DNA of 64,000 nucleotides. Origin: Pseudomonadota bacterium (lineage in GTDB: Bacteria; Pseudomonadota; Alphaproteobacteria; SHVP01). Positions 29,412 through 49,075 of this stretch are shown piece by piece. The DNA lies in contig JAQBYN010000002.1 in assembly GCA_027622715.1 (NCBI GenBank), forward strand, positions 6,682 to 70,681, written 5' to 3'. Both the position numbers and the translations under genes were made by a program. The notes below the pieces were generated by a model. The model was not told the origin of the DNA and made no database searches. It worked only from the letters and a program-made list of their open reading frames with translations. Each line of letters opens with the position of its first letter. Position 1 is the stretch's first letter.

Positions 29412-30269
29412 TCATAAGTTAGCTCTGTTCCTGTTTCGGTCCTGTTTGGACCGGGTTGCGAACTCGTGTGGGGTGAGCCCATCGAGGCTCGTGTGGGGTC
29501 GGTTCAGATTGTAGTCGGTCCTCCATGCGTCGATAAGTTCCCGGGCCCGACGCAGGGTTGGGAACAGATGTTCGTTGAGGCATTCGTCACGCAGCCGGCC
29601 GTTGAACGACTCGACGAACCCATTCTGCATCGGTTTGCCCGGTGCGATGTAGTGCCATTCAACACCACGGTCCTGCTGCCAGGCGAGGATCGCATTGGCG
29701 GTCAGCTCGGTGCCGTTGTCGCTCACCACCATGCAGGGATAGCCCCGACGCTCGGCGATGGCGTCCAACTCGCGCGCTACCCGATCCCCGGTCAGCGAGG
29801 TATCGACCACCGTCGCCAGGCACTCCCGGCTGAAGTCGTCGATCACACACAGGATGCGGAAGCGTCTGCCGTCGCTCAGCGTGTCGGCAACGAAGTCGAG
29901 GCTCCAGCGCTGGTTGGGGTCCTGCGGGATCGCCATCGGCGCCCTGGTCCCCAGAGCCCGCTTGCGGCCACCCCGCCGGCGCACCGTAAGCCGCTCTTCC
30001 TTGTAGAGCCGATACAGCTTCTTGCGGTTCACCGTCACCCCCTCGCGCTTCAGCAGTAGGTGCAGACGTCGGTAGCCGAACCGTCGTCGCTCGGTCGCCA
30101 GCTCCCGCAACCGCTGTCGCAGCCCGGCATCGTCCGGGCGCATCGACCGGTAGCGGTAGACCCGTGGGTCGATCCCCACCAGGCCACAGCCCCGGCGCTG
30201 CGAGTATCCTCTGTCATCGATCGCCCAGCTCACGGCACGTCTCCTTGAGCCAGGCGTTAGAAGTTTTTT
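29412..30269 (-). CDS. IS3 transposase OrfB (DDE integrase core), reached by -1 frameshift
   Basis: [61 protein letters not shown]; A-AAA-AAC slip site at ~30263-30269. Confidence 0.93.
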
Positions 30270-33436: not shown

Positions 33437-33582
33437 GAGCCTGTCCTAGGTGAGGGCCGGGAATATATGGCGGCTTTGGTGCACTGCACAAGGCGCGCGA
33501 CGGCGAATTGCTCGAAACTGCGCCGTGTGGCGAGACAAGCCGGGCGCGTGGCAGCTATGTTGGCCGTCTTTCACGCGATTTC

Positions 33583-34791
33583 ATGACTCCCTCAACCGCC
33601 AGAAAGCCGCCGGTCCCGTTGCTGCTGTCCGTCCAAGTCGGCGGAATCGTGGCGATTAACGTGTTTGCGCCGTCGATGCCGGACATCGCGCAGTCCCTCG
33701 ATACCTCGGCGACGGCGGTGCAGTGGACGATTACGGTGTTTCTCATCGGGTTTTCGGCCGGGCAACTCGTCTATGGCCCGATTTCAGACCGATTGGGGCG
33801 CCGCTCGGTCCTTTTTGGCGGAATGTTCCTGTTTTTGGTGGCGAACGCCGCGTGCGCCGCGGCGGCGACGATCGATTGGCTGCTGGCGGCTCGCCTGGTC
33901 CAGGGGTTCGGGGCGTGCTGTGGCAGCGTCCTGATGCGGGCGATCGTGCGCGACCTGTATGACCGAGACGACGCGGTCCGGATCATGAGTTATTTGGCGG
34001 TCGGTGCCGGCATTACGGCAGCCGTTGCACCGTCCATCGGGAGCGCGCTGATCGTTTTCGGCTGGCGCGCGAATTTTTGGTTTCTCGCGGTGGCAGCGGC
34101 GCTGCCGATGATGCTGGCCTATTTGTGGTTGCCCGAGACCCTCCCGCCGGAACGGCGCTTGTCGGGTCGCCGTGGCACGGTGCTGGGCGCCTATGCGACC
34201 CTATTCCGCTCGCGAACGTTCTTGGGGTATGGCCTGTTGATCGGTAGCGTCAACGCCCAATTCTTTGCCTTCATCGCCGGGGCGCCGTTCGTTCTGATCG
34301 GTGTCATGGGCATTCCGGCAGAGGCCTTTGGCCTTCTTATGTTGATGTCGACCGGCGGTTTTCTCGTCGGCAGCCTGATCGTGGCCCGACTCGCCGGGCG
34401 GATAGCCCCGCATCGCATTATTGCGATCGGCGCGATTGTCGTCTTCATGTCGATCGCGGCGCTGCTGGTTCTTGCGCTGATCGGGCTAAACAGCGTTGCC
34501 GCGATTATGCTGCCGATGTTCGTTCAAGGTGCGGCCAGCGGGTTCGTGTTTCCACCGGCGATGGCGCTCGGTGTCGGGGCACACCCGCGCATTGCCGGGA
34601 CTGCGTCGGGCACGCTTGGCGTGTTTCAAATGGGCAGCGCCGCGTTGGCTACTTTCATCGCCAGTCTGTTTGTCCATAACAGCATTATCCCGGTCGCGAT
34701 AATCATGTTCGTGCTCGCGGCAATCGGCGTTGCGGCGTTGCGGCTCATCGGCGTTTCGTCGCACCGCCGCGATGACACGGCGCCGGGATGA
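33583..34791 (+). CDS. Bcr/CflA family MFS efflux transporter 1
   Basis: 12 TM; VYGPISDRLGRR, ARLVQG, RAIVRDLY, LPET, AGTASG. Confidence 0.9.
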   Translation: MTPSTARKPPVPLLLSVQVGGIVAINVFAPSMPDIAQSLDTSATAVQWTITVFLIGFSAGQLVYGPISDRLGRRSVLFGGMFLFLVANAACAAAATIDWLLAARLVQGFGACCGSVLMRAIVRDLYDRDDAVRIMSYLAVGAGITAAVAPSIGSALIVFGWRANFWFLAVAAALPMMLAYLWLPETLPPERRLSGRRGTVLGAYATLFRSRTFLGYGLLIGSVNAQFFAFIAGAPFVLIGVMGIPAEAFGLLMLMSTGGFLVGSLIVARLAGRIAPHRIIAIGAIVVFMSIAALLVLALIGLNSVAAIMLPMFVQGAASGFVFPPAMALGVGAHPRIAGTASGTLGVFQMGSAALATFIASLFVHNSIIPVAIIMFVLAAIGVAALRLIGVSSHRRDDTAPG

Positions 34792-35990
34792 GCGATTCAG
34801 AAACCCGCCGCTACACGTTGGCGCTTCTACTGGCGCTGACGGGTACTTCGGCATTCTCCCTGCAGTTCTTTGTGCCGGCGATGCCTGCGCTGGTCGGGAT
34901 TTTCGAGACGACACCGGCGATGGTGCAACTGACCCTGACTCTGTTCTTGGCGGCTTACGGAATCTTTCAAGCCATCTATGGCCCGCTGTCGGACCGGTTC
35001 GGGCGCAAGCCGGTACTCGTCGCGGCCATTACAATTTACATCGCCGGATCTTTTCTCGGCGCGGCGGCGCTTAGCATCGAGATGGTGATCATTGCCCGTG
35101 TCCTGCAGGCGGTCGGGGCTGCGGCGGGTTTCGTATTGGTGCCGGCGATCGCCCGCGATGTTTACGGGCGCGACGGCGCGCCGCGCGCGATGGGTTACAT
35201 CAGTATGACCAACGGATTCATTTCGGCGGCTGGTCCGTTGGTCGGCGGCTTAATTCACCAATATGCCGGATGGCGTTACGGCCTGATGGCGACCGGGGCG
35301 CTTGGCGTCACGATGTTGCTCTTCACCGTGCTCTATTTGCGCGAGAGCGGCACCGTTATTCGGCAGCGCGTCGCAATCGCGGTCTTAGCGCGGGGATATG
35401 CCGCGCTGGCAAAGACCCGCGGGTTCATGGGCTACGTCTTGTCCGTCGCGTCGGTCAACGGTGTTTTTTATGCGTTTCTTGCCGGCGCTGCGTTCGTCGC
35501 GATCGAGAACCTTGGCGTATCGCCGTCGGGTTTTGGGTTGTTGATGGTTCCGGCTGTCGCGATGTTCATGACCGCCTCCTTCTTCAGCGACCGGTTGGCG
35601 CGCCGGATCGGCACCACCCGGGTCATTCTCATTGGTACGCTCTTCACGGCGACCGGCGCCGTTGGTTTGCTCGTGGTCTCATTGGCCGGACACCAGAGCG
35701 TCACGGCATTGCTGATCGCCAGCGCCTTTATGGGCTTGGGCAACGGTCAAGTCCTGCCGGCGTGCATTTCCGAAGCGGTAAGCGTCGAGCCTCGGTTGGC
35801 AGGGACAGCATCGGCGTGGCTGGGCGTCAGTCAGATGGCGGTGGCGGCAGCCGCCAGCCAGATATATGGGTTCATCCATGACGGGACGACGCTCCCGGTT
35901 GCTCTATTAATGACAATCCTCGCAGGGGGCGCCCTGGGGGGTTGGGTTCTGATCGCCCGACGCAACGTTGCACCGGCGACCAGCGCGTGA
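34788..35990 (+). CDS. Bcr/CflA family MFS efflux transporter 2
   Basis: YGPLSDRFGRKPV, ARVLQAVG, AIARDVY; ATGA overlap. Confidence 0.9.
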   Translation: MSDSETRRYTLALLLALTGTSAFSLQFFVPAMPALVGIFETTPAMVQLTLTLFLAAYGIFQAIYGPLSDRFGRKPVLVAAITIYIAGSFLGAAALSIEMVIIARVLQAVGAAAGFVLVPAIARDVYGRDGAPRAMGYISMTNGFISAAGPLVGGLIHQYAGWRYGLMATGALGVTMLLFTVLYLRESGTVIRQRVAIAVLARGYAALAKTRGFMGYVLSVASVNGVFYAFLAGAAFVAIENLGVSPSGFGLLMVPAVAMFMTASFFSDRLARRIGTTRVILIGTLFTATGAVGLLVVSLAGHQSVTALLIASAFMGLGNGQVLPACISEAVSVEPRLAGTASAWLGVSQMAVAAAASQIYGFIHDGTTLPVALLMTILAGGALGGWVLIARRNVAPATSA

Positions 35991-36044
35991 TCGCTGCGGC
36001 GAAAGGACTACTTTGCCCTTGGATCATTGCCTAAAGTCCCCGCG

Positions 36045-37250
36045 ATGCTGAACGCGCCGCCCGAACACCGCTACACCTTGATCTTGATGCTGACGATTAA
36101 CGCGGTGTCGATCGTGGCGATGCAGTTCATCGTGCCGGCGATGCCTGACCTCGTCGGCGAGTTCGCGACAACGCCCGCCATGGTCCAGCTCACGTTGACA
36201 ATGTTCATGCTGGGCTATGCGGTATTTCAGATCGCTTACGGCCCGCTGTCCGATCGGTACGGTCGCAAAGGCGTGGTGATGTGGGCGACGCTCGTTTTTA
36301 TCGCGGGCTCATTTCTTGGGGCCGTGGCGCCGTCGATCGAAGTGCTGGTTATCGCGCGTGTCCTGCAGTCGGTGGGTGCGGCGGCCGGCTTTGTTCTGCC
36401 GCCCGCGGTCGCGCGCGATATTTACGGTCACGACGGCGCGCCGCGCGCGATCGGTTGGATCAGCATCAGCGCCGGTCTCGCGGCATTATCGGCGCCCTAT
36501 TTTGGCGGACTCATCCACGAAACCGCGGGATGGCGCTGGGGTATGGGTTTTAACGGTGTTCTCGGGATTGCTATTTTGGTGGCTTGCGGTTTGTTGCTGG
36601 CAGAGAGCCATCCGATCGCACGGCGACAGTCCGTGGGTTTCGCTGGTTTGGCACGCGGTTACGCTGCCCTGGCGCGCTCGCGGCGCTTCATGGGTTATCT
36701 ATTGGCGACGGCCTTCGTGAATGGCGCGTTCTATGCGTTCTTCGCTGGCGGTACTTTTGTGGCAATCCAGATTCTCGGCCTGTCGCCGTCGCAATTCGGC
36801 TTGCTGACCATTCCCGTTGTCGCGCTATTCTTGCCCAGCGCCTATCTCAGCGTGCGCATGGCCGCACGCTTCGGGTCGACCCGGATCATTGCGCTTGGCA
36901 CCCTCACGACTGCGGCGGGGTCGATTGGATTGTTGTTTGTCGCGTTGTCGGGCAACGTAAGTGTGCCCGCGATTCTGGTCGCTAGCGCCCTATTAGGCTG
37001 GGGCAACGGTCAAGTGATCCCCAATGCGACCGCGGCTGCCGTCAACCTATTTCCGAAACTTGCGGGCACAGCGTCCGCCAGCCTCGGTACGGCCCAAATG
37101 GGCATGGGGGCGGTGGCGAGTTTGCTGTTCGGATTGTTGCATGACGGTACTTCAACCCCGATGGCGGCGCTGATGGCGGTCATGGGTCTCGCCGCCGTGC
37201 TGTCGTGCGGGCTGATCATAGCCGCACGCCGCCGTCCCGCCGTGGCGTAA
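36045..37250 (+). CDS. Bcr/CflA family MFS efflux transporter 3
   Basis: YGPLSDRYGRK, ARVLQSVG; close paralog of transporter 2. Confidence 0.9.
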   Translation: MLNAPPEHRYTLILMLTINAVSIVAMQFIVPAMPDLVGEFATTPAMVQLTLTMFMLGYAVFQIAYGPLSDRYGRKGVVMWATLVFIAGSFLGAVAPSIEVLVIARVLQSVGAAAGFVLPPAVARDIYGHDGAPRAIGWISISAGLAALSAPYFGGLIHETAGWRWGMGFNGVLGIAILVACGLLLAESHPIARRQSVGFAGLARGYAALARSRRFMGYLLATAFVNGAFYAFFAGGTFVAIQILGLSPSQFGLLTIPVVALFLPSAYLSVRMAARFGSTRIIALGTLTTAAGSIGLLFVALSGNVSVPAILVASALLGWGNGQVIPNATAAAVNLFPKLAGTASASLGTAQMGMGAVASLLFGLLHDGTSTPMAALMAVMGLAAVLSCGLIIAARRRPAVA

Positions 37251-37275
37251 CTTGATCGGTAAAAAAGGAGGCGAC

Positions 37276-38217
37276 ATGACATATCTCGTGACCGGCGGCA
37301 CCGGGTTTATCGGCTCTTGGGTGGTCAAGTCGTTGCTGGAACGCGGGCACAAAGTTGTCGCCTTCGACCTGGTGCCCGGACGTCACGCCCTCGATCCCGT
37401 GGTCGGCGAGCGGGCCGATGAAGTGACGATCGTGCAGGGCGATTTTACCCAGATGCACCGCGTGCTCGAAACAGTGCGCGAACACAAGATCACCCACATC
37501 GCGCATATTGCCGCCGCTGGCCTCAATTTGTGCAATGCGAACCCGGCGCATGCCGTTCATGTCAACGGTGTCGGCTTTGCGAGCATGCTCGAGGTCTGCC
37601 GCACGATGGATATCGAGCGGATGGTGTGGGCCAGTTCGGCGGGCGTGTTCGGCGGCAGCTGGGGGAGCAAAGCGGTGCCCAATGACGCCCCGTTCCAACC
37701 GCGCAACGTCTACGCCGGGCTCAAGGTCTTGGGCGAAACGCTGGCCGCGCAGTATCACGCGACCTATGGGACCGACGTGATCGGCCTGCGCTACACTTTC
37801 GTTAACGGACATGGCATGCCCAATCATCAAGGCGGCCAGATGATCCGCGAACTTTGCGAAAAGACCGCGCTCGGTCAGCCCGCGCAGGTGCCGTGGGGCG
37901 AAGATTCGCCCGATTGGCTGTGGGGCGGGGACGCGGGCGAGGCGACCGCCTTGGCGCTTGAAGCGGCGCCGACAAAATCGCGGGCCTTTAACGTGCCGGG
38001 CGATCACGCGCCGATGACCCGCGCGGTCGAATACGTGAAGTCACTTTTGCCCGACGCCGACATCACGCTGAAGGCGGGCAAGATGGGCTTCAACCGGTTC
38101 GACGGGTCGGTCACCGAGAAGGAAATCGGCTACAAGCCGAAGTGGACCATGGAAATGCAGCTGCGCGAACGTATCAACCGCGTGCGCCAAGAACACGGAT
38201 TGCCGCTGGTCGGGTAA
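37276..38217 (+). CDS. NAD-dependent epimerase/dehydratase (extended SDR)
   Basis: AGGAGG RBS; VTGGTGFIG, ASSAGVFG, YAGLK. Confidence 0.9.
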   Translation: MTYLVTGGTGFIGSWVVKSLLERGHKVVAFDLVPGRHALDPVVGERADEVTIVQGDFTQMHRVLETVREHKITHIAHIAAAGLNLCNANPAHAVHVNGVGFASMLEVCRTMDIERMVWASSAGVFGGSWGSKAVPNDAPFQPRNVYAGLKVLGETLAAQYHATYGTDVIGLRYTFVNGHGMPNHQGGQMIRELCEKTALGQPAQVPWGEDSPDWLWGGDAGEATALALEAAPTKSRAFNVPGDHAPMTRAVEYVKSLLPDADITLKAGKMGFNRFDGSVTEKEIGYKPKWTMEMQLRERINRVRQEHGLPLVG

Positions 38218-38248
38218 TCTCATCGCCACCTCGGAACCATCGAAGACA

Positions 38249-39457
38249 GTGACGGTGCGCAAGCCGCCGGTCATTTTCTTAGTCACCGTGACGGCCGCGG
38301 GCATTTTCGCGACCAACATGTACGTCCCATCGTTGCCGGCGATCGCCATTGACTTAGCGGCGAGCGAACGCGCTGTGCAGTTCACGATGACCGCGTTCCT
38401 GATCGTTTTCGCGGTCTTTCAGCTGGTCTATGGCCCGCTGGCCGACCGCTACGGGCGCAAGCGGATCATGCTGGGTGGCTTGACGATATTTATGATCGCT
38501 AATGTCATCGCCGCGAGCGCGCAGTCGATTGAGTGGCTGTTGGTCGCGCGTGTCCTGCAGGCGGTTGGCGCATGTGCGGGTCTGGTGATTAGCCGCGCCA
38601 TGGTGCGAGACACCTACGAGCGAGGCGAAAGCGCCCGTATCATGGCCTATCTCGGCATGGGGTCGGGCGTATCGTCGTCCGTTGCGCCGTTGCTCGGCGG
38701 TGCGCTGCAGGGATGGACGGGCGATTGGCGCTCCAGTTTCGTCTTCATGAGCGTCTTCACGTTGGGCCCGATGCTGGTGCTCGCCCTTACGGTGCGCGAG
38801 ACGTTACGCCGGGAAGACGCCGCGCGAGGCGGACTCGGCGGGATGGTGCGGGATTATTTTTCTCTATTGAGGACGCCGGAGTACATGTTGTTTTCGTTGG
38901 GCGCGGCCATGATGAACGCCACGTTCTTCGCGTTTCTGACGACCGCGCCGTTCATTTTGATCAATGTCGTCGGGGCGTCACCCGAGCGCTTGGGCGTCGT
39001 GCTGCTCTACATCACCACCGGATTTTTTGTCGGGAACTTGGTGGTTTCTCGAATCGGCGCGCGGTTTCCGCTTGAACGTATGATTCTCGGCGGGAGCACG
39101 CTTTGTTTCGCGGGGGTCGCGATCTTCACAGTGCTGGCGCTTGGCGGCGCGCGGAGCGAAGAGGCGATCGCACTGCCGATGTTGTTGTTCGGTTTAGGCA
39201 ACGGTTTCGTGCTGCCGCCATCGAGCGTGATCGCGGTCAGCGTCCGACCGCAGGTCGCTGGGACTGCATCCGCGCTATATGGGTTCAATGCCTTCGGACT
39301 TGGTGCGCTCGGCACCGTCGTCGCCGGCCTAATCTCCAATGAGACTCAGGTGCCTTTGGGGTTCGCAATGATGACGATGACGGGGATGGCGGTCGTCTTC
39401 TTTGCAACCGGCACCATAATCACGCGCCGACGAGACGTCGCTAGATTACGAGGTTGA
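38249..39457 (+). CDS. Bcr/CflA family MFS efflux transporter 4
   Basis: TNMYVPSLPAIA, YGPLADRYGRK, SRAMVRDTY, AGTASALYG. Confidence 0.92.
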   Translation: MTVRKPPVIFLVTVTAAGIFATNMYVPSLPAIAIDLAASERAVQFTMTAFLIVFAVFQLVYGPLADRYGRKRIMLGGLTIFMIANVIAASAQSIEWLLVARVLQAVGACAGLVISRAMVRDTYERGESARIMAYLGMGSGVSSSVAPLLGGALQGWTGDWRSSFVFMSVFTLGPMLVLALTVRETLRREDAARGGLGGMVRDYFSLLRTPEYMLFSLGAAMMNATFFAFLTTAPFILINVVGASPERLGVVLLYITTGFFVGNLVVSRIGARFPLERMILGGSTLCFAGVAIFTVLALGGARSEEAIALPMLLFGLGNGFVLPPSSVIAVSVRPQVAGTASALYGFNAFGLGALGTVVAGLISNETQVPLGFAMMTMTGMAVVFFATGTIITRRRDVARLRG

Positions 39458-42170
39458 ACAAGCTGCCTTGTCCACCGGCAAATGCGCTCGCGTTGTTACT
39501 CGCGTTGAACGAAATGGATTGCAGCCGCTGTAGCGCCGCTTGCATCGACGATATTTGATCGAGGAGGCGCTGCGGTGGTTGAGGTGGGAGCTCGAACTCG
39601 GGGTCCGGGCCCTCGGTCTTAAGGCGGAACGCTTTCTTGATGGTCGAACTCGCGAATTCGAGCAATGTCACAGCATCCTCGACAGCGCTCTCCGTCAGAA
39701 GGTTGATGTCGCTGGTCAGACCCAGACCGAAGTTGGTCTCGACAAAGCCCTCGCTGCCATCATCTTCAACCTCACCGAAAAGTACTTCGGGGCGCAAGCC
39801 AATGCCCGACAATGCGTCACGTCCTTCCGGGCCGGCGATCAATTCGATCTTATGACCGTTGAGTGCACTGACCCGGAGGAATCGCCCGGTAATGTCGCCA
39901 TCGATGAACCGCGCGGTGCCTTCGCCGCCAGAGCCGATCGCGTTGCGGAGTTTGAATGCGAGGAAACCATAGGTATCGTCGTCGTCGATCGTGATTTGTT
40001 TTCGCGGTCCGTTATCGACGGAGACATAGAAATACTGGCCGGGCCGGATCGTGCTAACGCTGGTGATCGTATCGGAGGGATCGGGGGGCACTTCACCCGT
40101 CGGGAGACCCATCCGCGACAACACGTTCGTTCCGTTGGCGTCGAAAGCGATCGACGACCCGCGTTGATCGAACCCGCCACCAAACTGGTGGCGCCACGTT
40201 TCGTTGAGGGTCGCATCGAACTTGATCACGAAAGCGTCGGTGATGCCGGTCGATGTCTCGCCGCCCAAAGTGCCGGCGGTTTCGCCAGTGACGTAGACCT
40301 CTTCGGTCGTCGGATCGACGGCGACGCTGAAGGCGCGATCGCCGACCGCGGTACCCATGAACGTGCCAAACGTGACCGCGCCATCCGCGTTGGCAAGTTT
40401 GGCCACGAACCCGTCGGTGTCGCCAGCGTGGGCCGTGACCGGCGTTGTCCCGCCGAAGAATGCGGTATTCGAGGTGTAGCCGCTGACGTAGATGTCGCCG
40501 TCGCTATCGACGGTCAGGCCAGTGACGGCACCATCGCTGCCGAGCGTGCCGCTAAACTCCCAGTCCTGCGCGGTCGCGTCGCCGTCGGCATAGCGCCGAA
40601 CGAACCCGACACCATCGTCAGTTCCGGCAAGCAACACGTTGCCTGACCCGTCGACCGCTACGGCGGTGTGCTGCTCATCGCCAGCATCGCCAAATTGTCG
40701 GCTGTACACAAAGGAGCCGCTGCTGTCGAGTTTCGTGACGAACGCGTCGTCCCCGCCGCTATACCCCTCGCCGGGAGCAATCTCGGAGCGGGTCAAACCG
40801 GCAATGAATATTTCGTTGCTGCTGTTGACGGTCAGGGAGACCGCAACATCGTCCAAAAAGGGGCCCGCTTGCCGAGTCCATTGCTCTTGCCCGACGCTGT
40901 TGAATTGGGTGACAAAGGCGTCAAGGTTGCCGCCGAAGGCGTTGGCCGTGAGTTCGCCGCGCACCTGGCCCGTGACGATAACGTTGTCGTTGCTATCGAC
41001 TGCAACGGCAAAGCCGGCGCCGTCTACAGTTGCGCCAAGACGTCGGGTGAACTCGAGAGTGCCGGCGGCGTCGTACTTGTTTAGGAACACATCGCTGTTC
41101 TCGGGATCAACATTTTGCGTGCCGAGATCGCCGGCGGTTTTCCCAACAACATACACCGCGCCGGTGCTGTCAACGGCGACCCCACGGGCGTCGTCGCCCT
41201 TATCGGTCGTATCGATCTGATTGTAGAAAACCTCGGTCGGATTGGCGGTCACGAGATCGTCGATCTTGGTAACGAAGCCACCGCCCGATGGCCCCTGACC
41301 GCGCAGGCCGGCGACGTAGACCGCGCTCGATTCGGTTGCCGCGGCAGCACTGAGGGTCGCGGTTTCGCCGAAACCAACATCGATACGGAACCCGTATTTA
41401 TTCTCGTCGTAGCGCTCGGTGTGTAGCTGGGTCGCAATGCCTGCGTTGACCAACTCGGGATTCACGTAGGCTGAAATATTGTCCAGCGTGTAATCGTTCG
41501 GATCTGCGCTGACTGCGCTCAATGTAATTGTGACCGAACGGACGGTGGTTCCATCATCGGTTTGGACGGTGAATTGGTCTGTTGGGGTTAGTCCCGGTAT
41601 CGGATCGTTGCGGTTTTCCAGAATGACCGCCCCGTTGAAGCGCGGCGCGCTTTCGTCCTGAGGCAGGACAATCGACGAATCGAGGTCGGCCTCCAATATT
41701 CCGGTGACCAGCGAGATAGTGTTGTAATTCGCGCCGTTGACAAAGGTTTCGAGTTCGGCGACCCGAGTCTGGAATTTGCTGTCCACCAGCGTCGACAACA
41801 GCTTGCCCTGCGTCGTCTGGGCATACTTTGCGATATCCAACATTTCATTGACCGCTTTGTAGGCGGCGAAGAGCGATTTCGAATCGTCGTCCAGGTCGAC
41901 GCGGTCGAACAGCGGATCCTTCGGATCGATCAACGCTGCCTGCGAAAACACCCGTTGCTCGAGGCTTTTGTCGGGGACCGTCTGACGCAGCTGCCAGGGC
42001 GGAATAACGGTTTGTTCGCGGGCCGCGATCAGCCGGCCGATCTCACCGTTGCGCAAAACCGCCGTGCGCACAGCCGCCGACTGTCCACCGCCAGCAGCGT
42101 AATAGTTGCCGATGACGTTGAAGTCGAAAAAGAGCGGCTGATACCTCGCGAACGAGGACGAGAAGACCAT
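39441..42170 (-). CDS. FlaEY-like flagellar-associated protein with SBBP beta-propeller repeats
   Basis: 909 aa, no Sec signal; helical N- and C-termini; repeated GVAVDSxGxVYVxG...DAFVxKxDxxG units; sigma54 and ftr-like sites upstream. FlaEY resemblance is from recollection, not a search. Confidence 0.65.
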   Translation of the reverse strand: MVFSSSFARYQPLFFDFNVIGNYYAAGGGQSAAVRTAVLRNGEIGRLIAAREQTVIPPWQLRQTVPDKSLEQRVFSQAALIDPKDPLFDRVDLDDDSKSLFAAYKAVNEMLDIAKYAQTTQGKLLSTLVDSKFQTRVAELETFVNGANYNTISLVTGILEADLDSSIVLPQDESAPRFNGAVILENRNDPIPGLTPTDQFTVQTDDGTTVRSVTITLSAVSADPNDYTLDNISAYVNPELVNAGIATQLHTERYDENKYGFRIDVGFGETATLSAAAATESSAVYVAGLRGQGPSGGGFVTKIDDLVTANPTEVFYNQIDTTDKGDDARGVAVDSTGAVYVVGKTAGDLGTQNVDPENSDVFLNKYDAAGTLEFTRRLGATVDGAGFAVAVDSNDNVIVTGQVRGELTANAFGGNLDAFVTQFNSVGQEQWTRQAGPFLDDVAVSLTVNSSNEIFIAGLTRSEIAPGEGYSGGDDAFVTKLDSSGSFVYSRQFGDAGDEQHTAVAVDGSGNVLLAGTDDGVGFVRRYADGDATAQDWEFSGTLGSDGAVTGLTVDSDGDIYVSGYTSNTAFFGGTTPVTAHAGDTDGFVAKLANADGAVTFGTFMGTAVGDRAFSVAVDPTTEEVYVTGETAGTLGGETSTGITDAFVIKFDATLNETWRHQFGGGFDQRGSSIAFDANGTNVLSRMGLPTGEVPPDPSDTITSVSTIRPGQYFYVSVDNGPRKQITIDDDDTYGFLAFKLRNAIGSGGEGTARFIDGDITGRFLRVSALNGHKIELIAGPEGRDALSGIGLRPEVLFGEVEDDGSEGFVETNFGLGLTSDINLLTESAVEDAVTLLEFASSTIKKAFRLKTEGPDPEFELPPQPPQRLLDQISSMQAALQRLQSISFNASNNASAFAGGQGSLFNLVI

Positions 42171-42210
42171 TGTTTGCGAACCTGAGGATTGCGGGTCTGC
42201 CTGGATTCAC

Positions 42211-42226
42211 TGCAAACAATGAGCCA
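42211..42226 (-). promoter_or_regulatory. sigma54 (-24/-12) promoter of the FlaEY-like gene
   Basis: TGGCTC-ATTGT-TTGCA on the minus strand (GG-N10-GC), 40 bp upstream of the ATG. Confidence 0.7.
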
Positions 42227-42239
42227 GCCGCGCCGGTCC

Positions 42240-42255
42240 TGGCATGCCAAATGCA
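42240..42255 (+). promoter_or_regulatory. Possible divergent sigma54 promoter for the sugar operon
   Basis: TGGCAT-GCCAA-ATGCA (GG-N10-GC); -12 element imperfect. Confidence 0.45.
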
Positions 42256-42409
42256 CCGTATACCTTCGAAATCAGGGTTAACGGCTGTCCGGCTTGGTTC
42301 GGATTCACCGACTGTTAACCAAACCGCCGTGAGAATGCCGGAGATATGACACAGGAACGCGCACGACCACCCGTTCGCCGCATCGGCAGGGGGTGGATTG
42401 TGCCCACCA

Positions 42410-42428
42410 CCCGGCAAATTTTGCCGGG
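42410..42428. promoter_or_regulatory. Perfect 19-bp palindrome, ftr/FlbD enhancer-like
   Basis: CCCGGCAAA-T-TTTGCCGGG; the CGGC-N7-GCCG core resembles Caulobacter ftr elements. Confidence 0.6.
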
Positions 42429-42441
42429 CAAAGAGGCATAA

Positions 42442-44022
42442 ATGGCCCCTGGCGAACCCGCTGCGATCCCGTTTGATATCTTGCGTTCTCCTAAACGGGC
42501 CCGCGATAAGATCAAATCGTTGCAGGACCTCGCGGCGATCTCCGCTGCGCTGAAGGCGCGGGGTAAGACCATCGTTCTCGCCCACGGCGTGTTCGACCTG
42601 GTCCATATGGGGCATGTCCGTCATCTGGAGGCCGCCGCCGCGGAAGGCGACGTCCTTATCGTGACGATTACCCCTGATGAATTCGTCAACAAGGGGCCGG
42701 GGCGCCCGGTTTTCACTGGAGGTCTGCGCGCCGAAATGCTCGCGGCGCTGGGCTGCACGGACTGGATCGGCGTGAACGAATGGTCGAGCGCTGAGCAATT
42801 GCTCGAACTCGTTCGTCCGGACGTCTACGTCAAAGGCTCCGACTACTCCAACGAGGGCGAGGACCTCACCGGCAAGATTCGGATGGAGCGGGAAGCCGTC
42901 GAGCGGCACGGCGGCCGCGTCGTCTATACCGACGACATCACTTTTTCCTCGTCCTCGCTGATTAACCGGCACCTGAACGTCTTCGAACCCGACGTGATGG
43001 AGTATCTCAACGGACTCGACAAGGCGGCGCATTTGGAAAGCGCTCTTGGCGCGCTCGATCGCATTAAAGACATGCGCGTGCTGCTAGTCGGCGAAGCGAT
43101 CATCGACGAATATCTGTACGCGAAGCCGATGGGGAAGTCGGCGAAAGAAAATATCATCGCGTCGCGCTACTCGGGCCGCGAGGTTTTTGCTGGTGGCGTC
43201 ATCGCCGCGGCAAATCACGTCGCCGACTTCGTCAAGGATGTCGAAGTCGTCACCATCCTCGGCGAACGAGAATCCTACCAAAGCCTCATCCGCGACACGA
43301 TCCGTGACAACGTAACGATCCACAGCCTGTATCGCCCCGGCCTTCCGACCATTCGCAAGAGCCGATATGTCGACCCCGGGCACATGCGCAAGCTATTCGA
43401 GGTGTATCACTTCGACGACACCCCGTTGAACGGGCCGATCGAGAAACAACTATGCGACATGATCGGGGATCGGGCGCGTGATTTCGATGTTGTGATCGTC
43501 ACCGATTTTGGTCACGGCATGATGACGCCGCGCGCCATTCGAACCACCATCGAAACCGCGCCGTTCTTGGCGGTCAACGCACAGAGCAATAGTGCTAACC
43601 TCGGCTACAACATGGTCACCCGCTACAACCGCGCCGACTATGTTTGCATTGACGCGCCAGAGGCACAGCTAGCGACTGGCGACCGGTTTTCCGACATCGA
43701 AGACGTCATTACCGACGGCCTCGCCCATGCGATTGATTGCGATCGCATTGCTGTGACGCACGGCCAAAATGGCTGCGTCACGTACGACCGCCAGCAAGAT
43801 GTGCGGCGTGTCCCGGCTTTTACCCGCCAAGTTGTGGATACCGTCGGCGCGGGCGATGCATTCCTCGCGGTGACATCGCCGGTGGTGGCCGCTGGCGCCG
43901 ACATGGAGGTCGCCGGCTTCATCGGCAATGCCGTGGGCGCGCTGAAGGTTGGCATCGTTGGGCACCGCCAGTCGGTGGAAAAGATTCCGGTCCAGAAATA
44001 CATAACAACGTTGTTGAAGTAG
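42442..44022 (+). CDS. Bifunctional cytidylyltransferase-like + PfkB kinase (RfaE/HldE-like, reversed domain order)
   Basis: N-terminal HGVFDLVHMGH and VKGSDY; C-terminal GEAIIDEY and VVDTVGAGDAF. Confidence 0.9.
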   Translation: MAPGEPAAIPFDILRSPKRARDKIKSLQDLAAISAALKARGKTIVLAHGVFDLVHMGHVRHLEAAAAEGDVLIVTITPDEFVNKGPGRPVFTGGLRAEMLAALGCTDWIGVNEWSSAEQLLELVRPDVYVKGSDYSNEGEDLTGKIRMEREAVERHGGRVVYTDDITFSSSSLINRHLNVFEPDVMEYLNGLDKAAHLESALGALDRIKDMRVLLVGEAIIDEYLYAKPMGKSAKENIIASRYSGREVFAGGVIAAANHVADFVKDVEVVTILGERESYQSLIRDTIRDNVTIHSLYRPGLPTIRKSRYVDPGHMRKLFEVYHFDDTPLNGPIEKQLCDMIGDRARDFDVVIVTDFGHGMMTPRAIRTTIETAPFLAVNAQSNSANLGYNMVTRYNRADYVCIDAPEAQLATGDRFSDIEDVITDGLAHAIDCDRIAVTHGQNGCVTYDRQQDVRRVPAFTRQVVDTVGAGDAFLAVTSPVVAAGADMEVAGFIGNAVGALKVGIVGHRQSVEKIPVQKYITTLLK

Positions 44023-44028
44023 GGCGCT

Positions 44029-44661
44029 ATGGCAGTCGATTTCTCGAAACAAAATCTCTCGGCGTATTTTGCGACGCTTGGTGCGATGGATCGTCGAATT
44101 GTTGCGACAGATGAAACCGGCGCACGGCTTGATCTGGCGGCAGTCATGGGCGCGGCCATGGAGCGGGCGCAGCTGACCCACGACGCCGGCAAAAAGCTCA
44201 TGTTTATCGGCAATGGCGGGTCTTCGACGGTCGCGAGCCATATGGCCGAGGATTACACCAAGGCGGGCGGTATTCGCGCCATGGCATTCAACGACCCGGC
44301 CTTTCTAACCTGCTTGGGCAACGATCTCGGTTTCGATCAAATATTTGCCAAGCAGATCGAGATGTTCGCGCAACCGGGCGACATGTTGGTGGCGATTTCA
44401 AGTTCGGGAAATTCGCAAAACATTTTGAACGGCGTATTCGCTGCGCAAAAACGCGGGTGTTGGGTGATGACGCTGTCGGGATTCACCCCGGACAATCTGC
44501 TGCGCAACCTCGGCGACATCAACGTTTACGTGCCGTCTAGCGAATACGGTTTTGTCGAGATTGCCCATTTGGCGGTGTGCCACGCGATGCTCGACATTGC
44601 GATGGGCTGGCAAGATCGCGCCGATCCGGAACACCGTTCTTTGAAAGTGGTTTCAGCATGA
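44029..44661 (+). CDS. SIS-domain phosphoheptose isomerase-like (GmhA-like)
   Basis: IGNGGS...ASH, GNDLGFDQIFAKQI, ISSSGNSQN, E..H. Confidence 0.87.
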   Translation: MAVDFSKQNLSAYFATLGAMDRRIVATDETGARLDLAAVMGAAMERAQLTHDAGKKLMFIGNGGSSTVASHMAEDYTKAGGIRAMAFNDPAFLTCLGNDLGFDQIFAKQIEMFAQPGDMLVAISSSGNSQNILNGVFAAQKRGCWVMTLSGFTPDNLLRNLGDINVYVPSSEYGFVEIAHLAVCHAMLDIAMGWQDRADPEHRSLKVVSA

Positions 44662-45656
44662 CGAACAAGACCTGGAACGTTCTTGTCACCGGCGGTGCCG
44701 GCTACGTCGGCAGCGCGCTGGTGCCCAAGCTTCTGGCTGCCGGGCACCGCGTAACGGTTCTGGATTTGTACATCTACGGCGATGTCTTCGCGCCGATCAA
44801 AGGCGATCCGAAGCTCCGCGAGGTAAAAGGCGATTTGCGTGACCGCGCCGCGGTGGCCGATGCCATGCAGGGCTGCGACGCCGTCATTCACCTGGCGTGT
44901 ATTTCCAACGACCCTAGTTTCGAATTGAACCCCGATCTTGGCAAGTCCATCAACTACGACGCGTTTCGCCCGCTGGTTCGGGTCGCCAAAACCGAAGGGG
45001 TTCGCCGCTTCATCTACGCGTCGTCGTCGAGCGTCTACGGCATCAAGGACGATCCCGAAGTAACCGAGGACCTGCCGCTCGACCCACTGACCGACTACTC
45101 CAAGTTCAAGGCGATGTGCGAAGACGTGCTGGCTGAGGAGCGCGAACCCGGGTTCACCACGCTTATCATCCGGCCCGCCACGGTGTGCGGCTACGCACCC
45201 CGGTTGCGCCTTGATCTGACCGTCAACATCTTGACCAACCACGCGATCAATAACGGCAAGATAACCGTTTTCGGCGGCGCGCAACGCCGCCCGAACATCA
45301 ACATCGAGGACATGACCGATCTCTATGTCAACTGTCTGCAATACGAAGACGCGGCGATTGACGGCAAGATTTTCAACGCCGGTTTTGAGAACCACAGCGT
45401 CGCGGAAATTGCAGAGATGGTCCGCACCTCGGTCGGCAATGGCGTCGAGGTCGTGACTCAGTCGACCGACGACATGCGCTCCTATCACGTCTCATCGCAG
45501 AAGATTCGCGATGAACTCGGATTTGTTCCAGTGCATACGATTGAAGATGCGGTGGACAGTCTGATTGCCGCGTTCAAAACCGGGCAGGTGGCCGATCCAA
45601 TGGCGAATCCGCTCTACTACAACATCAAAACAATGCAGGCGATAGATTTGGCATGA
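44658..45656 (+). CDS. NAD-dependent nucleotide-sugar epimerase/dehydratase
   Basis: VTGGAGYVG, HLACISNDP, YASSSSVYG, YSKFK, RLRLDLTVN. Confidence 0.92.
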   Translation: MTNKTWNVLVTGGAGYVGSALVPKLLAAGHRVTVLDLYIYGDVFAPIKGDPKLREVKGDLRDRAAVADAMQGCDAVIHLACISNDPSFELNPDLGKSINYDAFRPLVRVAKTEGVRRFIYASSSSVYGIKDDPEVTEDLPLDPLTDYSKFKAMCEDVLAEEREPGFTTLIIRPATVCGYAPRLRLDLTVNILTNHAINNGKITVFGGAQRRPNINIEDMTDLYVNCLQYEDAAIDGKIFNAGFENHSVAEIAEMVRTSVGNGVEVVTQSTDDMRSYHVSSQKIRDELGFVPVHTIEDAVDSLIAAFKTGQVADPMANPLYYNIKTMQAIDLA

Positions 45657-46288
45657 CCTTGCTTCTCGGAATCGATTTCGATAATACGATTGTCAGCTAC
45701 GACGCGTTATTCGCGCGGCTCGCAATCGAGGCGGGCTACATTGACGATGTACCGTCCGGCGGAAAAACTGCAATCCGCGACGTGGTGCGCGCCGCGCACG
45801 GCGACAAGGCGTGGCAATTGCTGCAAGCCGACGCCTACGGTGCCCGCGTGAGCGAAGCATTGCTAAGCCAGGGTTTCTCGGCCTTCGTTTCCAGCGCCCG
45901 CCGGTTGGGGGTTCCGCTGGTCGTCGTCAGCCACAAGTCAGTGTTTTCGCATGTTGCCGCCGGCGGCCCGAATCTTCGTTACGCCGCGCTGGCCTGGATG
46001 CGGGCGAACCGGTTCTTTGAACCCGGCGGGCTTGGCTTCGGCGTTGATGACATCTATTTCGAAGGGACGCGGTGCGAGAAGGTGGCGCGCATTCGAGAAC
46101 TCGGCTGCACCCACTTTGTCGATGACCTTCCCGAAGTCTTCGCGGAAAAATCCTTTCCCAATGGTGCGATGCGTATCTTGTACGCCCCGACCGGAGACCG
46201 TGCGGACGGATCCGCTGACGCCGTTGTGAGCGATTGGTTCGACCTACGCGATCTTCTCTTCGCCCATGCCGAAAGAGCCGTCGCGTAA
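45653..46288 (+). CDS. HAD-superfamily phosphatase
   Basis: GIDFDNTI (motif I), VVSHK (II), K and FVDD (III/IV). Confidence 0.85.
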   Translation: MTLLLGIDFDNTIVSYDALFARLAIEAGYIDDVPSGGKTAIRDVVRAAHGDKAWQLLQADAYGARVSEALLSQGFSAFVSSARRLGVPLVVVSHKSVFSHVAAGGPNLRYAALAWMRANRFFEPGGLGFGVDDIYFEGTRCEKVARIRELGCTHFVDDLPEVFAEKSFPNGAMRILYAPTGDRADGSADAVVSDWFDLRDLLFAHAERAVA

Positions 46289-47301
46289 ACGAGCTGTCGC
46301 AGATCGCTGAAGTTGCCCGCGCATTATGCGGCGGCACGGTGGGCGGCTTGGAAGAGATCAATGGCGCCGGCAATCATCGGGTCTACCGCGTTGACGGCAG
46401 TAACGGATCACGTTTTGCGCTCAAGACCTACTTTGCCGGCGGCCATGATGGCCCGCAGCGTTTGAGCGCTGAGTTCAAAGGCCTCACCTATATGTGGCGC
46501 GAAGGATTGCGCGTTATTCCCGAGCCAATGGCGGCGGACCGTGAAGCGCAGTGTGCCCTGTTCGGATGGATCGAAGGCGACCCTGTAACCAAACCGAGGC
46601 CGGTCGACATCGATGCGGCCAGCGACTTCATCCGCGCGCTGCGCGATCTGGCGCGGCAGCCTGACTCCGCGGAATTACCACTTGCCCGCGAGGCATGCTT
46701 GTCGCCGGACGAGTTGCATCGGCAGATTGTCGCACGCCGGGCACGGTTGGCGCGGGAATCCGCATTTCGCGGCGATCTCGCCCTGTTCTTGCGCGACACA
46801 TTTGACGACACGTTGCATGTCAACTGGGCCAAAGCCCGGCGCGGACTTGCTGCCGCGGGGATTCCTGCCGGTAAAGACCTGCCGGTCGAACACCGGACGC
46901 TGTCGCCGTCGGATTTTGGATTTCACAACGCCGTCCGCGCTGCCGACGGCACCCTGATTTTCTGCGACTTCGAATATTTCGGTTGGGACGATCCGGTCAA
47001 GCTGGTTGCGGACTTTGTTCTTCACCCCGGAATGGCCCTGAAACCGCGCCTCGCCGACCGATTCGAGAAAAACGCTTCAGCGATATTTGCCGGCGATCCA
47101 GCTTTCGCCGATCGTTTGAAGCTGTTGAAGCCGCTTTATGCACTGCGCTGGGCCCTCATTACATTGAACGAGTTCATTCCCGAGCGCTGGGCGCAACGGG
47201 CCTTTGCCCACGGCGAACGCGATCGCAATGCAGTGCTGGGGCAACAACTTGCCAAGGCCGAAGGCTTTGTCTCTCGCGTTCATGAGGAGATCGCCGCGTG
47301 A
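46285..47301 (+). CDS. Aminoglycoside-phosphotransferase/kinase-like protein (start codon uncertain)
   Basis: GAGNHRVYRV, FALKTY, LSPSDFGFHN, FCDFEYFGWDDP. Confidence 0.8.
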   Translation, partial: VNELSQIAEVARALCGGTVGGLEEINGAGNHRVYRVDGSNGSRFALKTYFAGGHDGPQRLSAEFKGLTYMWREGLRVIPEPMAADREAQCALFGWIEGDPVTKPRPVDIDAASDFIRALRDLARQPDSAELPLAREACLSPDELHRQIVARRARLARESAFRGDLALFLRDTFDDTLHVNWAKARRGLAAAGIPAGKDLPVEHRTLSPSDFGFHNAVRAADGTLIFCDFEYFGWDDPVKLVADFVLHPGMALKPRLADRFEKNASAIFAGDPAFADRLKLLKPLYALRWALITLNEFIPERWAQRAFAHGERDRNAVLGQQLAKAEGFVSRVHEEIAA

Positions 47302-48134
47302 CTCATGAGGCACACATTCGGGTTGTCGGCGACGACCTCGACGAACGGTCATTGGCGCTGCGGCGCCTTGTTGTGCGCGGCCTCGACGGTGGCAAACGCG
47401 GGCATATGGGATCGGCCTTCTCGCTGATTGAAATGCTGCGCGTTCTCTATGACGACATTCTGCGCTTCGACCCGAAGAACCCGACTTGGGCCGACCGCGA
47501 CCGCTGCATCTTGAGCAAAGGGCACGGCTGCCTCGCGCTCTACGCCATCCTCGCCGATAGGGGCTTCTTTCCGGCGGCCGAGCTCGACCGGTTTTGCCAA
47601 TTCGACGGCATGCTTGGCGGCCACCCCGAGCGCGCCAAAGTTCCTGGGGTCGAAGCGTCGACCGGTGCACTAGGCCACGGGTTGTCGATCGGTCTGGGAC
47701 AGGCTTTGGCAATGCGCCTGCAAAAGCGCGACTCACGCGTTTTCGTGATCATGGGCGACGGCGAAATCAACGAGGGATCGGTTTGGGAGGCTGCGCTGTG
47801 CGCAGGCAAACACCGGCTCTCGAATCTGGTGGCCATGGTCGATTACAACAAACTGCAATCCTATGACCGAACCAGCATCGTACAGGACCTTGAACCGCTT
47901 GCCGATAAATGGCGCGCGTTCGGTTTTGACGTACGCGAGGTCGACGGCCATGACGTCGATCAGTTGCACCGCGTTCTTTCTAACGTACCGTTCGATAGCG
48001 GCAAGCCGTCGGCAATCATTTGCCACACCGTGAAGGGCAGGGGCATTGCCGTGGCGGAAGGCAATCCCGAATGGCACCACAGATCCAAGATCAATGACGA
48101 CGAAGTCGCCGCCATGTACGCCGAGCTGGAGTAG
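47298..48134 (+). CDS. Transketolase N-terminal (TPP-binding) subunit
   Basis: GHMGSAFS, DRCILSKGH, STGALGHGL, GDGEINEGSVWEA...N, HTVKGRG. Confidence 0.93.
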   Translation: MTHEAHIRVVGDDLDERSLALRRLVVRGLDGGKRGHMGSAFSLIEMLRVLYDDILRFDPKNPTWADRDRCILSKGHGCLALYAILADRGFFPAAELDRFCQFDGMLGGHPERAKVPGVEASTGALGHGLSIGLGQALAMRLQKRDSRVFVIMGDGEINEGSVWEAALCAGKHRLSNLVAMVDYNKLQSYDRTSIVQDLEPLADKWRAFGFDVREVDGHDVDQLHRVLSNVPFDSGKPSAIICHTVKGRGIAVAEGNPEWHHRSKINDDEVAAMYAELE

Positions 48135-48136
48135 CT

Positions 48137-49075
48137 ATGCGTAAAACAAGCCTCGATTGCGTTTACGAACTTGCGCGGCGCGACCCACGCGTTGTGTTCA
48201 TCGGCTCCGATCTCGGTGCCGGCACGCTCGACTCGTTCAAAGAAGAGATGCCCGAGCGTTTCTTTATGGAAGGCGTGACCGAACAAAACATTATTGGCAT
48301 GGCCGCCGGCCTGGCGATGGAAGGCTACATCCCTTACGTCAACACGATCGCGACTTTCATCACCCGTCGTTGTTTCGAGCAGGTCGCGGTCGATTTGTGC
48401 CTTCATAACTTGCCGGTACGTCTCATCGGGAATGGTGGTGGTTTGGTTTACGCGCCGCTTGGGCCGACGCATCTCGCCATTGAAGACATCTCGATCATGC
48501 GGTCGCTCCCGAACATGACCGTCGTGGCGCCGGTCGATAAAGAAGAGATGGCGCGCTTTGTGCCCCAAACGCTCGATATGCCGGGTCCGGTTTACATTCG
48601 CTTGGCAAAAGGCGGCGACCCGATCGTCTCGCGCGCCGAAAATGGATTCACGGTCGGCAAGGCCATCTTGATGCGCGACCCAGGTGATATTCTGCTGGTT
48701 TCAACCGGTGTCATGACGAACCGCGCGTTGGACGCGGCGGCGGCGCTCGAAGCCACCGGCGGTCTGCGCTGCGGCGTGCTGCACATGCACACCGTTAAGC
48801 CACTAGACGACGCTGCATTGCTTGATCTTGCCGGCAAGGTCCGCGGGATTGTCACCGTGGAAGAACACACGCTGGTCGGCGGCCTAGGTAGTGCGGTCAA
48901 CGACCTACTCGGCGACCGGCTGGGCCGGCGCGCGCCGCCAGTCTTGCGTCTGGGCATTCCCGATCGATTCCCAGATAAGTACGGCACACAAGACGACCTG
49001 CTCGGCTACTACGGGCTCCAGCCCGATGCTATTGCCAGCTCCGTCAGAGAGTTTGCCTCGGTTCATCTGCGCTAG
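48137..49075 (+). CDS. Transketolase C-terminal subunit
   Basis: EQNIIGMAAGLA, GPTHLAIED, GPVYIRL, TVKPLD, TVEEH..GGLGS. Confidence 0.93.
   Translation: MRKTSLDCVYELARRDPRVVFIGSDLGAGTLDSFKEEMPERFFMEGVTEQNIIGMAAGLAMEGYIPYVNTIATFITRRCFEQVAVDLCLHNLPVRLIGNGGGLVYAPLGPTHLAIEDISIMRSLPNMTVVAPVDKEEMARFVPQTLDMPGPVYIRLAKGGDPIVSRAENGFTVGKAILMRDPGDILLVSTGVMTNRALDAAAALEATGGLRCGVLHMHTVKPLDDAALLDLAGKVRGIVTVEEHTLVGGLGSAVNDLLGDRLGRRAPPVLRLGIPDRFPDKYGTQDDLLGYYGLQPDAIASSVREFASVHLR

Follow-up and report, generated by a model that had tools for sequence, protein, structure and literature searches.

A conserved region between a FlaEY-family gene and a sugar operon that probably acts as a bidirectional control region in the flagellar hierarchy of an uncultured alphaproteobacterial genus

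A probable shared control region between divergent genes

We analysed a stretch of 64,000 nucleotides (the window) from an alphaproteobacterial assembly (NCBI GenBank GCA_027622715.1, contig JAQBYN010000002.1, positions 6,682 to 70,681) and found that the 271-base intergenic region at 42171..42441, which separates a minus-strand open reading frame (ORF) of the FlaEY family (39441-42170) from an operon on the plus strand with its start at 42442 that appears to encode a heptose-type sugar pathway, probably directs transcription both ways within the flagellar gene hierarchy of this genus. Judged by comparison with related sequences the region is real and conserved, and it adds to a known type of regulon. 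In Caulobacter, late flagellar genes are controlled by sigma54 together with FlbD bound at ftr dyads, which can lie upstream or downstream of divergent promoters.

The arrangement that we propose is as follows. The FlaEY-family gene would be read from a sigma54 promoter at 42226-42211 on the minus strand, and an enhancer-binding protein (EBP) of the FlbD type, bound as a dimer to a dyad at 42410-42428, would activate this promoter by DNA looping over ~200 bp. The sugar operon would be read from a CtrA-dependent promoter overlapping a box at 42304-42319, and perhaps also from a sigma54 promoter at 42240-42255 that the dyad would serve from downstream. The bound activator might in addition repress the CtrA promoter. 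These assignments of binding proteins, start points and the promoter feeding the operon we infer from the motifs and their placement.

If correct, they extend a hierarchy of the Caulobacter type (CtrA, followed by sigma54/FlbD) to uncultured alphaproteobacteria that are known only from metagenome-assembled genomes, with a FlaEY-family beta-propeller protein, a heptose-type sugar operon, a diguanylate cyclase and pilin-like secreted proteins as new targets.

Motifs of the region

An earlier note on this DNA, made from the sequence alone, had placed five motifs in the region, and a direct reading of the sequence returned all five at the same positions. For the sigma54 -24/-12 element we used what we take to be the consensus, TGGCAC-N5-TTGCW with GG and GC exactly 10 nt apart, and scored all mismatches against it. 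The elements of the region are:

42211..42226, minus strand: sigma54-type -24/-12 promoter of the FlaEY-family gene, TGGCTC-ATTGT-TTGCA, with one mismatch and GG-N10-GC spacing
42240..42255, plus strand: second sigma54-type motif and candidate promoter of the sugar operon, TGGCAT-GCCAA-ATGCA, with two mismatches
42276..42282, no strand: conserved half-site GGTTAAC, of which GGTTAA (42276-42281) is invariant in a six-genome alignment
42304-42319, plus strand: CtrA-like box TTCA-N7-TTAAC facing the sugar operon, with the continuation TTAACCAAA to 42323, by direct reading
42331..42348, plus strand: GAGAATG and GA-ATG blocks, invariant in the alignment, candidate -10 region(s) of a CtrA-dependent promoter
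42399..42404, plus strand: invariant TGTGCC, which can pair with GGCAUA (42435-42440) at the ribosome-binding site, from conservation and a predicted fold
42410..42428, no strand: perfect 19-bp dyad CCCGGCAAATTTTGCCGGG, a 9+1+9 palindrome with the core GGCAA-N3-TTGCC, predicted enhancer of the FlbD type

The two sigma54 motifs stand back to back, 13 bp apart. Their predicted starts lie near 42200 on the minus strand, which would give the FlaEY-family gene a leader of ~30 nt, and near 42267 on the plus strand. The dyad ends 14 nt ahead of the ATG at 42442, ~190-200 bp upstream of the minus promoter and at ~+150 relative to the plus promoter. No IHF site was found by eye between promoter and dyad, and an Rfam scan of the whole window returned no family at the gathering score.

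Conservation of the motifs against chance

We refer to the window's own assembly (3,147,013 bp in 86 contigs) as G000, to its contigs by C-numbers and to the genomes of relatives as G002 and so on; G002 is a congener with FlbD, FliX, CtrA and a full flagellum, and g3 and g4 are further genera of the same family. Both strands of G000 contain 51 sigma54-like 16-mers with at most one mismatch and 625 with at most two, and the numbers expected per 271 bp on a given strand are ~0.002 and ~0.027, respectively. Seven of the 51 are intergenic and 44 coding; since the two densities are roughly equal, motif density alone is weak evidence. All seven intergenic motifs point at a gene start within 350 bp, the minus-strand motif of the control region among them. 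The scan also recovered the psp operon with the adjacent PspF gene, which suggests that it detects real promoters, and rpoN is encoded in the assembly (one Sigma54_DBD match of 225.7 bits, on C86). A near-identical motif, TGGCTCATCGTTTGCT at position 156392 of C67, lies antisense within an MFS gene and was discarded as a chance match. The 19-mer dyad occurs once in G000.

Conservation was examined in an alignment of six genomes of the genus with a mean column identity of 76%. Invariant were 9 of the 11 specified positions of the minus sigma54 promoter, 10 of 11 of the plus sigma54 motif, 8 of 9 of the CtrA-like box, all six of GGTTAA and all ten of the dyad core, or 43/47 overall against 61/224 in the rest of the intergenic region (Fisher p = 1e-15 with GGTTAA entered as 5/6, a value that overstates the case because the kin are not independent). 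On this comparison the motifs are beyond chance, and conservation is decisive here. That they are functionless chance matches in GC-rich intergenic DNA is therefore scarcely credible: the density of sigma54-like 16-mers in coding DNA and the number of exact dyad cores, which are no commoner than a reversed control (see below), are what such matches would give, but the position-specific invariance in six genomes, the pairing of dyad and promoter in four of seven cases against none of seven for control palindromes, and the orthologous placement at flagellar promoters contradict it.

The divergent FlaEY/sugar gene pair is retained in the genus and recurs elsewhere in the family, in other genera. 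The same holds for the minus-strand sigma54 promoter proposed by the earlier note, which is kept not only by the congeners but also by two or three more genera, g3 and g4 among them. The plus-strand promoter of that note fared less well: congeners carry TGGCAC at this position (TGGCACGGCAAATGCA, one mismatch), in line with the genus-wide invariance, but beyond the genus the motif is retained weakly and in one further genus only, and it was not seen in g4 or in most of the distant loci.

The dyad as a probable enhancer of the FlbD type

Dyad and promoter also go together. In G000 four of the seven intergenic sigma54 motifs with at most one mismatch have a dyad core (at most one mismatch) 30-270 bp upstream, against two of the 44 coding-region motifs; at a chance rate of ~0.014 per promoter this gives P ~1e-6, and three control palindromes of similar composition gave 0/7 pairings. 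These four motifs belong to the FlaEY locus, to a GGDEF gene (C13), to a gene for a secreted pilin-like protein (C41) and to a promoter at C56, and a fifth pair, an exact dyad with a sigma54 promoter of two mismatches, precedes a paralogous pilin-like gene at C4. A 155-aa ORF 3' of the C56 promoter was rejected as its target, being apparently spurious (Arg-rich and without family).

In the congener G002 the exact core occurs seven times, namely at the fliF promoter (adjoining a CtrA-like box), in the divergent fliX/flgI region (upstream of a sigma54 promoter), in the divergent flgBC-fliE/flhB' region, at the FlaEY locus, at the GGDEF and pilin-like genes and once in coding DNA, and the sigma54 promoters of the flagellin genes have one-mismatch dyads 145-165 bp upstream. 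The palindrome thus does occur at other flagellar promoters, whose lack of it the earlier note had considered fatal to its reading. The fliF dyad is found at the matching position in G003, G004 and G007, and flagellin genes of g3 and g4 are preceded by exact cores at a distance of 160-360 bp. The same classes of targets appear in the Caulobacter FlbD list from chromatin immunoprecipitation sequencing (ChIP-seq), which contains fljK, fliF, flaN, flgI, fljL and flgF and no flaEY (supplementary file s4 of PMC4083442); that paper also describes repression of PfliF by FlbD (PMC4083442). Judged by its placement at flagellar promoters in kin, and not by the letters of the ftr consensus, the dyad is presumably an enhancer of the FlbD type, and the form C-C/G-GGCAA-N3-TTGCCGG could be used to annotate flagellar sigma54 promoters in this family.

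The presence of the FlaEY gene follows that of the flagellar genes. Among 17 genomes of the family, a full-length FlaEY homologue was found in 10 of the 11 with FlhA and in one of the six without, which is G000 itself, and FlbD occurs in ten family genomes that are all FlhA-positive; the FlaEY gene thus co-occurs with FlhA and FlbD within the family. In G008 and G010 the FlaEY locus lies ~15 kb from flagellin genes.

The palindrome could also act mainly as an RNA hairpin in the leader of the sugar operon, nested as the inner stem within an outer one (TGTGCC/GGCAUA) that would cover the ribosome-binding site and so control translation and not transcription. The predicted fold in G000 (-22.4 kcal/mol, z -2.06), the still lower z of -3.83 in one congener and the otherwise unexplained invariant TGTGCC that pairs with the ribosome-binding region are in line with such a role. 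Yet two other congeners reach a z of just -0.27 and -1.24, the alignment gives a covariation term of +0.14 with invariant core pairs and a flanking pair that is broken in two of the six sequences, and elsewhere the same core lies upstream of a sigma54 motif, outside the transcript. We therefore regard a mainly RNA-based function as very unlikely; a second, added role of the dyad in translation is possible.

The GGDEF gene (G000:C13:27335-28211) encodes a 240-aa diguanylate cyclase and has the sigma54 motif TGGCACGAGCATTGCC with an exact dyad 86 bp upstream, an arrangement that is also kept in G002, G003 and G007 and that suggests a link between the synthesis of c-di-GMP and the late flagellar regulon. 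The genes at G000:C41:3648-4253 and G000:C4:13721-14128 encode paralogous secreted proteins, each behind a sigma54 motif with an upstream dyad, that have a signal peptide, the C-terminus ...GTYTGTY.VTL.F and no Pfam family (the G002 homologue has 233 aa), and that are possibly pilin- or fimbria-like.

The CtrA-like box and promoter turnover

A CtrA site is defined as TTAA-N7-TTAA(C), or as the half-site TTAACCAT (PMC6180460). The box of G000, TTCA-N7-TTAAC followed by CAAA, has one mismatch, and the congeners carry TTTA-N7-TTAACCAAA. In G002 boxes of the same form precede ctrA (where the match is exact), fliX and fliF, which agrees with the CtrA-like sites suggested by the earlier note. With an intact TTAAC and at most one mismatch in the 5' half, G000 contains 43 such boxes (counted per strand), 23 of them in the 10.9% of its DNA that is intergenic, a ~5-fold enrichment. 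The box is also the most widely retained element of the region: it is found with at most one mismatch in 18 of 22 related FlaEY/sugar intergenic regions, the 22 being what remains of 26 loci with the gene pair after three same-genus duplicates and one truncated locus were set aside.

In distant lineages a second TTCA-N7-TTAAC box on the minus strand faces the FlaEY gene, and GGTTAAC corresponds to its 3' half. The genus of the window retains only this half and has the sigma54 promoter and dyad instead. This points to promoter turnover: where distant lineages have a CtrA-like box facing FlaEY, this family has a sigma54 promoter with dyad.

It is possible, though rather doubtful, that the sugar operon is read from the CtrA-type promoter only and that the plus sigma54 motif, instead of working as a promoter, serves the FlaEY promoter as a conserved upstream element or binds competing holoenzyme. 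The box in 18 of the 22 regions would fit this, as would the restriction of the plus motif to the genus and, weakly, one further genus, and two holoenzymes at -24 elements 13 bp apart would presumably crowd each other. In Caulobacter, the flagellin-glycosylation genes flmG, flmA and neuB are activated by CtrA (PMC7591256). The invariance of the plus motif at 10 of 11 positions and the closer match to the consensus in congeners speak against a CtrA promoter as the only one. Titles of Caulobacter papers, which name downstream ftr elements and a 3' enhancer, do so as well. The reading with both promoter types, in which the sigma54 motif may add to the CtrA-dependent start, is the one that we retain.

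Two further arrangements were seen upstream of FlaEY genes. Nine distant loci (L093, L097, L099, L102, L103, L104, L105, L113 and L124) have a conserved TGTGGATAA between the two CtrA-like boxes, the reverse complement of what we take to be the DnaA box, TTATCCACA, and a TGGCA-N3-TGCCA-like dyad nearer the FlaEY gene; both are absent from the genus of the window. Loci L107 and L112 have a conserved TAGCACGG-N3-TTGCA upstream of FlaEY, with AG replacing the GG of a sigma54 promoter, and a GGCAA-type dyad between this element and the FlaEY gene.

Results that weigh against the assignment

Several results weigh against the place of the region in a flagellar hierarchy. Counted over whole genomes of kin, exact dyad cores are not enriched over the reversed control (7 versus 4 in G002, 27 versus 31 in five further kin), and the case for the dyad therefore rests on placement and not on count. 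In one Brevundimonas genome the core is not enriched (2 versus 1 for the control) and does not lie at flagellar promoters. The lack of flaEY among the FlbD ChIP targets of Caulobacter (PMC4083442 s4) indicates that the sigma54/dyad wiring of FlaEY is lineage-specific. A sense sigma54 motif was found upstream at only 8 of 59 FlaEY-family loci elsewhere; set beside the CtrA-like box in 18 of 22 regions, this too makes the sigma54 wiring lineage-specific, and control of the sugar operon by a CtrA-type box the older of the two. Reading on from the CtrA-like box, we could not fit a -35/-10 pair at the usual spacing.

The remaining points concern G000 itself, which is 100% complete by marker genes and in 86 contigs. 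It contains no FlbD equivalog (on NF050807, where the cut-off is 750 bits, its best EBPs reach 335 and 319) and no CtrA equivalog (best 156 bits, cut-off 350), no FlhA, FliF or rod/hook family was found, and tblastn gave no FliX, FlgI, FlbT or FlaF. The CtrA model passes in Caulobacter, and nine family genomes score 383-400 bits with it. Both flagellin genes that G000 retains are orphans, and upstream of them we found no sigma54 motif (at most three mismatches), dyad (at most one) or CtrA box. The claim of the earlier note that the FlaEY-like gene and the sugar operon belong to the flagellar regulon is thus shown for the genus and not for G000, whose assembly is without FlbD, CtrA and flagellar structural genes.

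The kin are different in this respect. FlbD was matched in 10 of the 16 other family genomes searched, nine times above the cut-off and once at 748 against 750 bits, and FliX equivalents are encoded in congeners. The flbD gene adjoins flhA, and in G002 the same island holds fliF, fliG, fliN, fliI, hook genes, ctrA and chpT. This island (G002:C3:9800-46400, beside a DUF3553 gene) comprises sugar genes, an FlmG-like glycosyltransferase, flgKL, fliK-flgDE, fliFG-fliN-flbD-flhA, fliIJ, ctrA and chpT. Contig C21 of G000 is collinear with the flank of the island and, after the DUF3553 gene, continues for 0.5 kb into a non-homologous ORF (the stretch 45700-46166 was compared) before the contig ends; the flanks of the flagellin island are not conserved. 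The elements of G000 either were orphaned recently or are served by regulators in unassembled DNA, and their perfect state argues for an assembly gap or a very recent loss. That cis-elements and trans-factors are uncoupled in this assembly either cautions against trusting its completeness or offers a natural experiment on how a regulon decays.

The activators that G000 does encode are NtrC, NtrX, PspF and a REC-AAA-HTH protein at C21, none of which reaches the FlbD cut-off; the activator at C41 was dismissed as FlbD, as it is PspF, beside pspABC. That the dyad in G000 is read by another EBP and that the regulon is no longer flagellar, with the REC-AAA-HTH protein (G000:C21:7105-8580, beside an Hpt gene) as candidate, we consider decidedly unlikely. 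G000 does keep this protein, 41% identical to the FlbD of G002, in spite of having no FlbD, the remaining targets in G000 (the GGDEF gene and the secreted pilin-like paralogues) include no flagellar parts, and contig C21 runs past the island boundary into the non-homologous ORF. The protein is, however, also present in G006, G011, G012 and G013, all without FlhA, FlbD and FlaEY, and was not found in g4, which has a FlaEY locus with a sigma54 promoter; moreover, in kin the dyad marks the fliF, flgI and flagellin promoters.

It is likewise unlikely that the flagellar islands, with flbD, fliX and ctrA, are genuinely gone from the organism while a sub-regulon stayed under selection, another activator took over the elements and the role of FlaEY became non-flagellar. 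The sub-regulon kept in this unlikely case would consist of the FlaEY gene, the heptose-type operon, the GGDEF gene, the pilin-like paralogues, orphan FliG and FliN and the flagellin paralogues. FlaEY could then serve, for example, in adhesion or at the cell surface, as a glycosylated protein whose terminal helices would resemble those of flagellin. For the genus as a whole, control by the flagellar hierarchy remains our preferred reading.

Some further genes of G000 are related to those of the flagellar islands. An orphan full-length FliG of 363 aa, 32% identical to that of G002, is encoded at G000:C56:9627-10718, and an orphan gene for a FliN C-terminal domain (80 aa) at G000:C49:3945-4187. 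At G000:C72:42400-44707 an exact CtrA box, TTAACGAACGATTAAC, lies 60 bp ahead of a gene for a 743-aa protein with tetratricopeptide repeats (TPR) and a Glyco_transf_41 (GT41) domain, of the FlmG type. TPR + GT41 glycosyltransferases of this type are also present in the flagellar islands of kin.

The FlaEY-family gene and the sugar operon

The genes on the two sides of the region are:

39441..42170, minus strand: FlaEY-family gene, 909 aa (ORF; Pfam SBBP, E 8e-15; precomputed PF27198 and PF06739)
42442..44022, plus strand: first operon gene, bifunctional cytidylyltransferase-like and PfkB kinase protein, HldE-like (PF01467 at residues 47-174, PF00294 at 213-513)
44029-44661, plus strand: GmhA-like SIS isomerase, from family matches
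~44658-45656, plus strand: NAD epimerase, from family matches
45653-46288 and ~46234-47301, plus strand: two ORFs without family
47298-48134 and 48137-49075, plus strand: N and C parts of a split transketolase, from family matches

The label 'FlaEY-like' of the earlier note agrees with the precomputed Pfam domain PF27198, which is named FlaEY_3rd and is assigned to the window protein's own cluster (P0001) and to 118 of the 120 listed homologues. In the AlphaFold model (pLDDT 80.5) helices at 18-146 and 827-896 flank beta domains that include an SBBP beta-propeller, and the listed Foldseek matches are mostly beta-propeller folds, CylK first, with no flagellin among them. An hhalign comparison with flagellins was not significant (probability 3.1% over 31 columns), and feature matches at 0.90 with Flagellin_N clusters give no more than a lead. 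A literature search on 'FlaEY' returned nothing on its control region.

At 26 of 63 loci the HldE-like gene stands opposite FlaEY as its divergent partner. Its product carries the two domains in the order opposite to that of the NCBIfam HldE model, and the models for rfaE domains I and II match below their cut-offs. In the rest of the operon (44029..49075) every NCBIfam equivalog match is below cut-off as well, and for this reason the nucleotide-heptose pathway can only be inferred; the product would be a heptose-type nucleotide sugar.

Comparison with known systems

The region resembles the class III/IV flagellar promoters of Caulobacter crescentus (including flaN/flbG) in the combination of a -24/-12 promoter and a GC-rich dyad at a distance of one to two hundred bp, in the sharing of elements between divergent units, in the dyad beside a CtrA-type box at fliF of a congener, in the target classes of the FlbD ChIP-seq list and in the FlbD and FliX equivalents of congeners. 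It differs in that FlaEY is a target here and is not in the Caulobacter FlbD ChIP list, in that the core is not enriched in the one Brevundimonas genome and in that G000 is without FlbD in the assembly.

For the Caulobacter flmG/flmA/neuB genes (PMC7591256), the likeness lies in a flagellum-linked sugar pathway behind a CtrA-type box, with glycosyltransferases of the FlmG type in kin and in G000. Here, in contrast, the route is nucleotide-heptose-like (HldE-like, GmhA-like, epimerase and split transketolase) and not one to pseudaminic acid, and the box has one mismatch (TTCA).

The CtrA-controlled divergent flagellar promoters of Rhodobacter sphaeroides are similar in having short regions and TTAA-type CtrA sites near -35 (PMC6180460). 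In that organism the fla2 genes use neither RpoN nor FlbD, whereas sigma54 and a dyad are joined to the CtrA-like box here.

Finally, the domain content of the first three operon genes is that of the ADP-L-glycero-D-manno-heptose pathway (GmhA, HldE, GmhB, HldD), but the operon matches are below the equivalog cut-offs, the order of kinase and nucleotidyltransferase is reversed, a split transketolase and two family-less ORFs are added and the setting is flagellar instead of lipopolysaccharide-related.

Other genes in the window

Beyond the FlaEY-family gene, four tandem paralogous transporter-like genes occupy 33508-39457 of the window (33508-34791, 34788-35990, 36027-37250 and 38249-39457, the last with Pfam MFS_1), interrupted by a gene for an NAD-dependent epimerase/dehydratase at 37252-38217. 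The minus-strand ORF at 29412-30233 resembles, by eye, the integrase-type ORF of an IS3-family insertion sequence.

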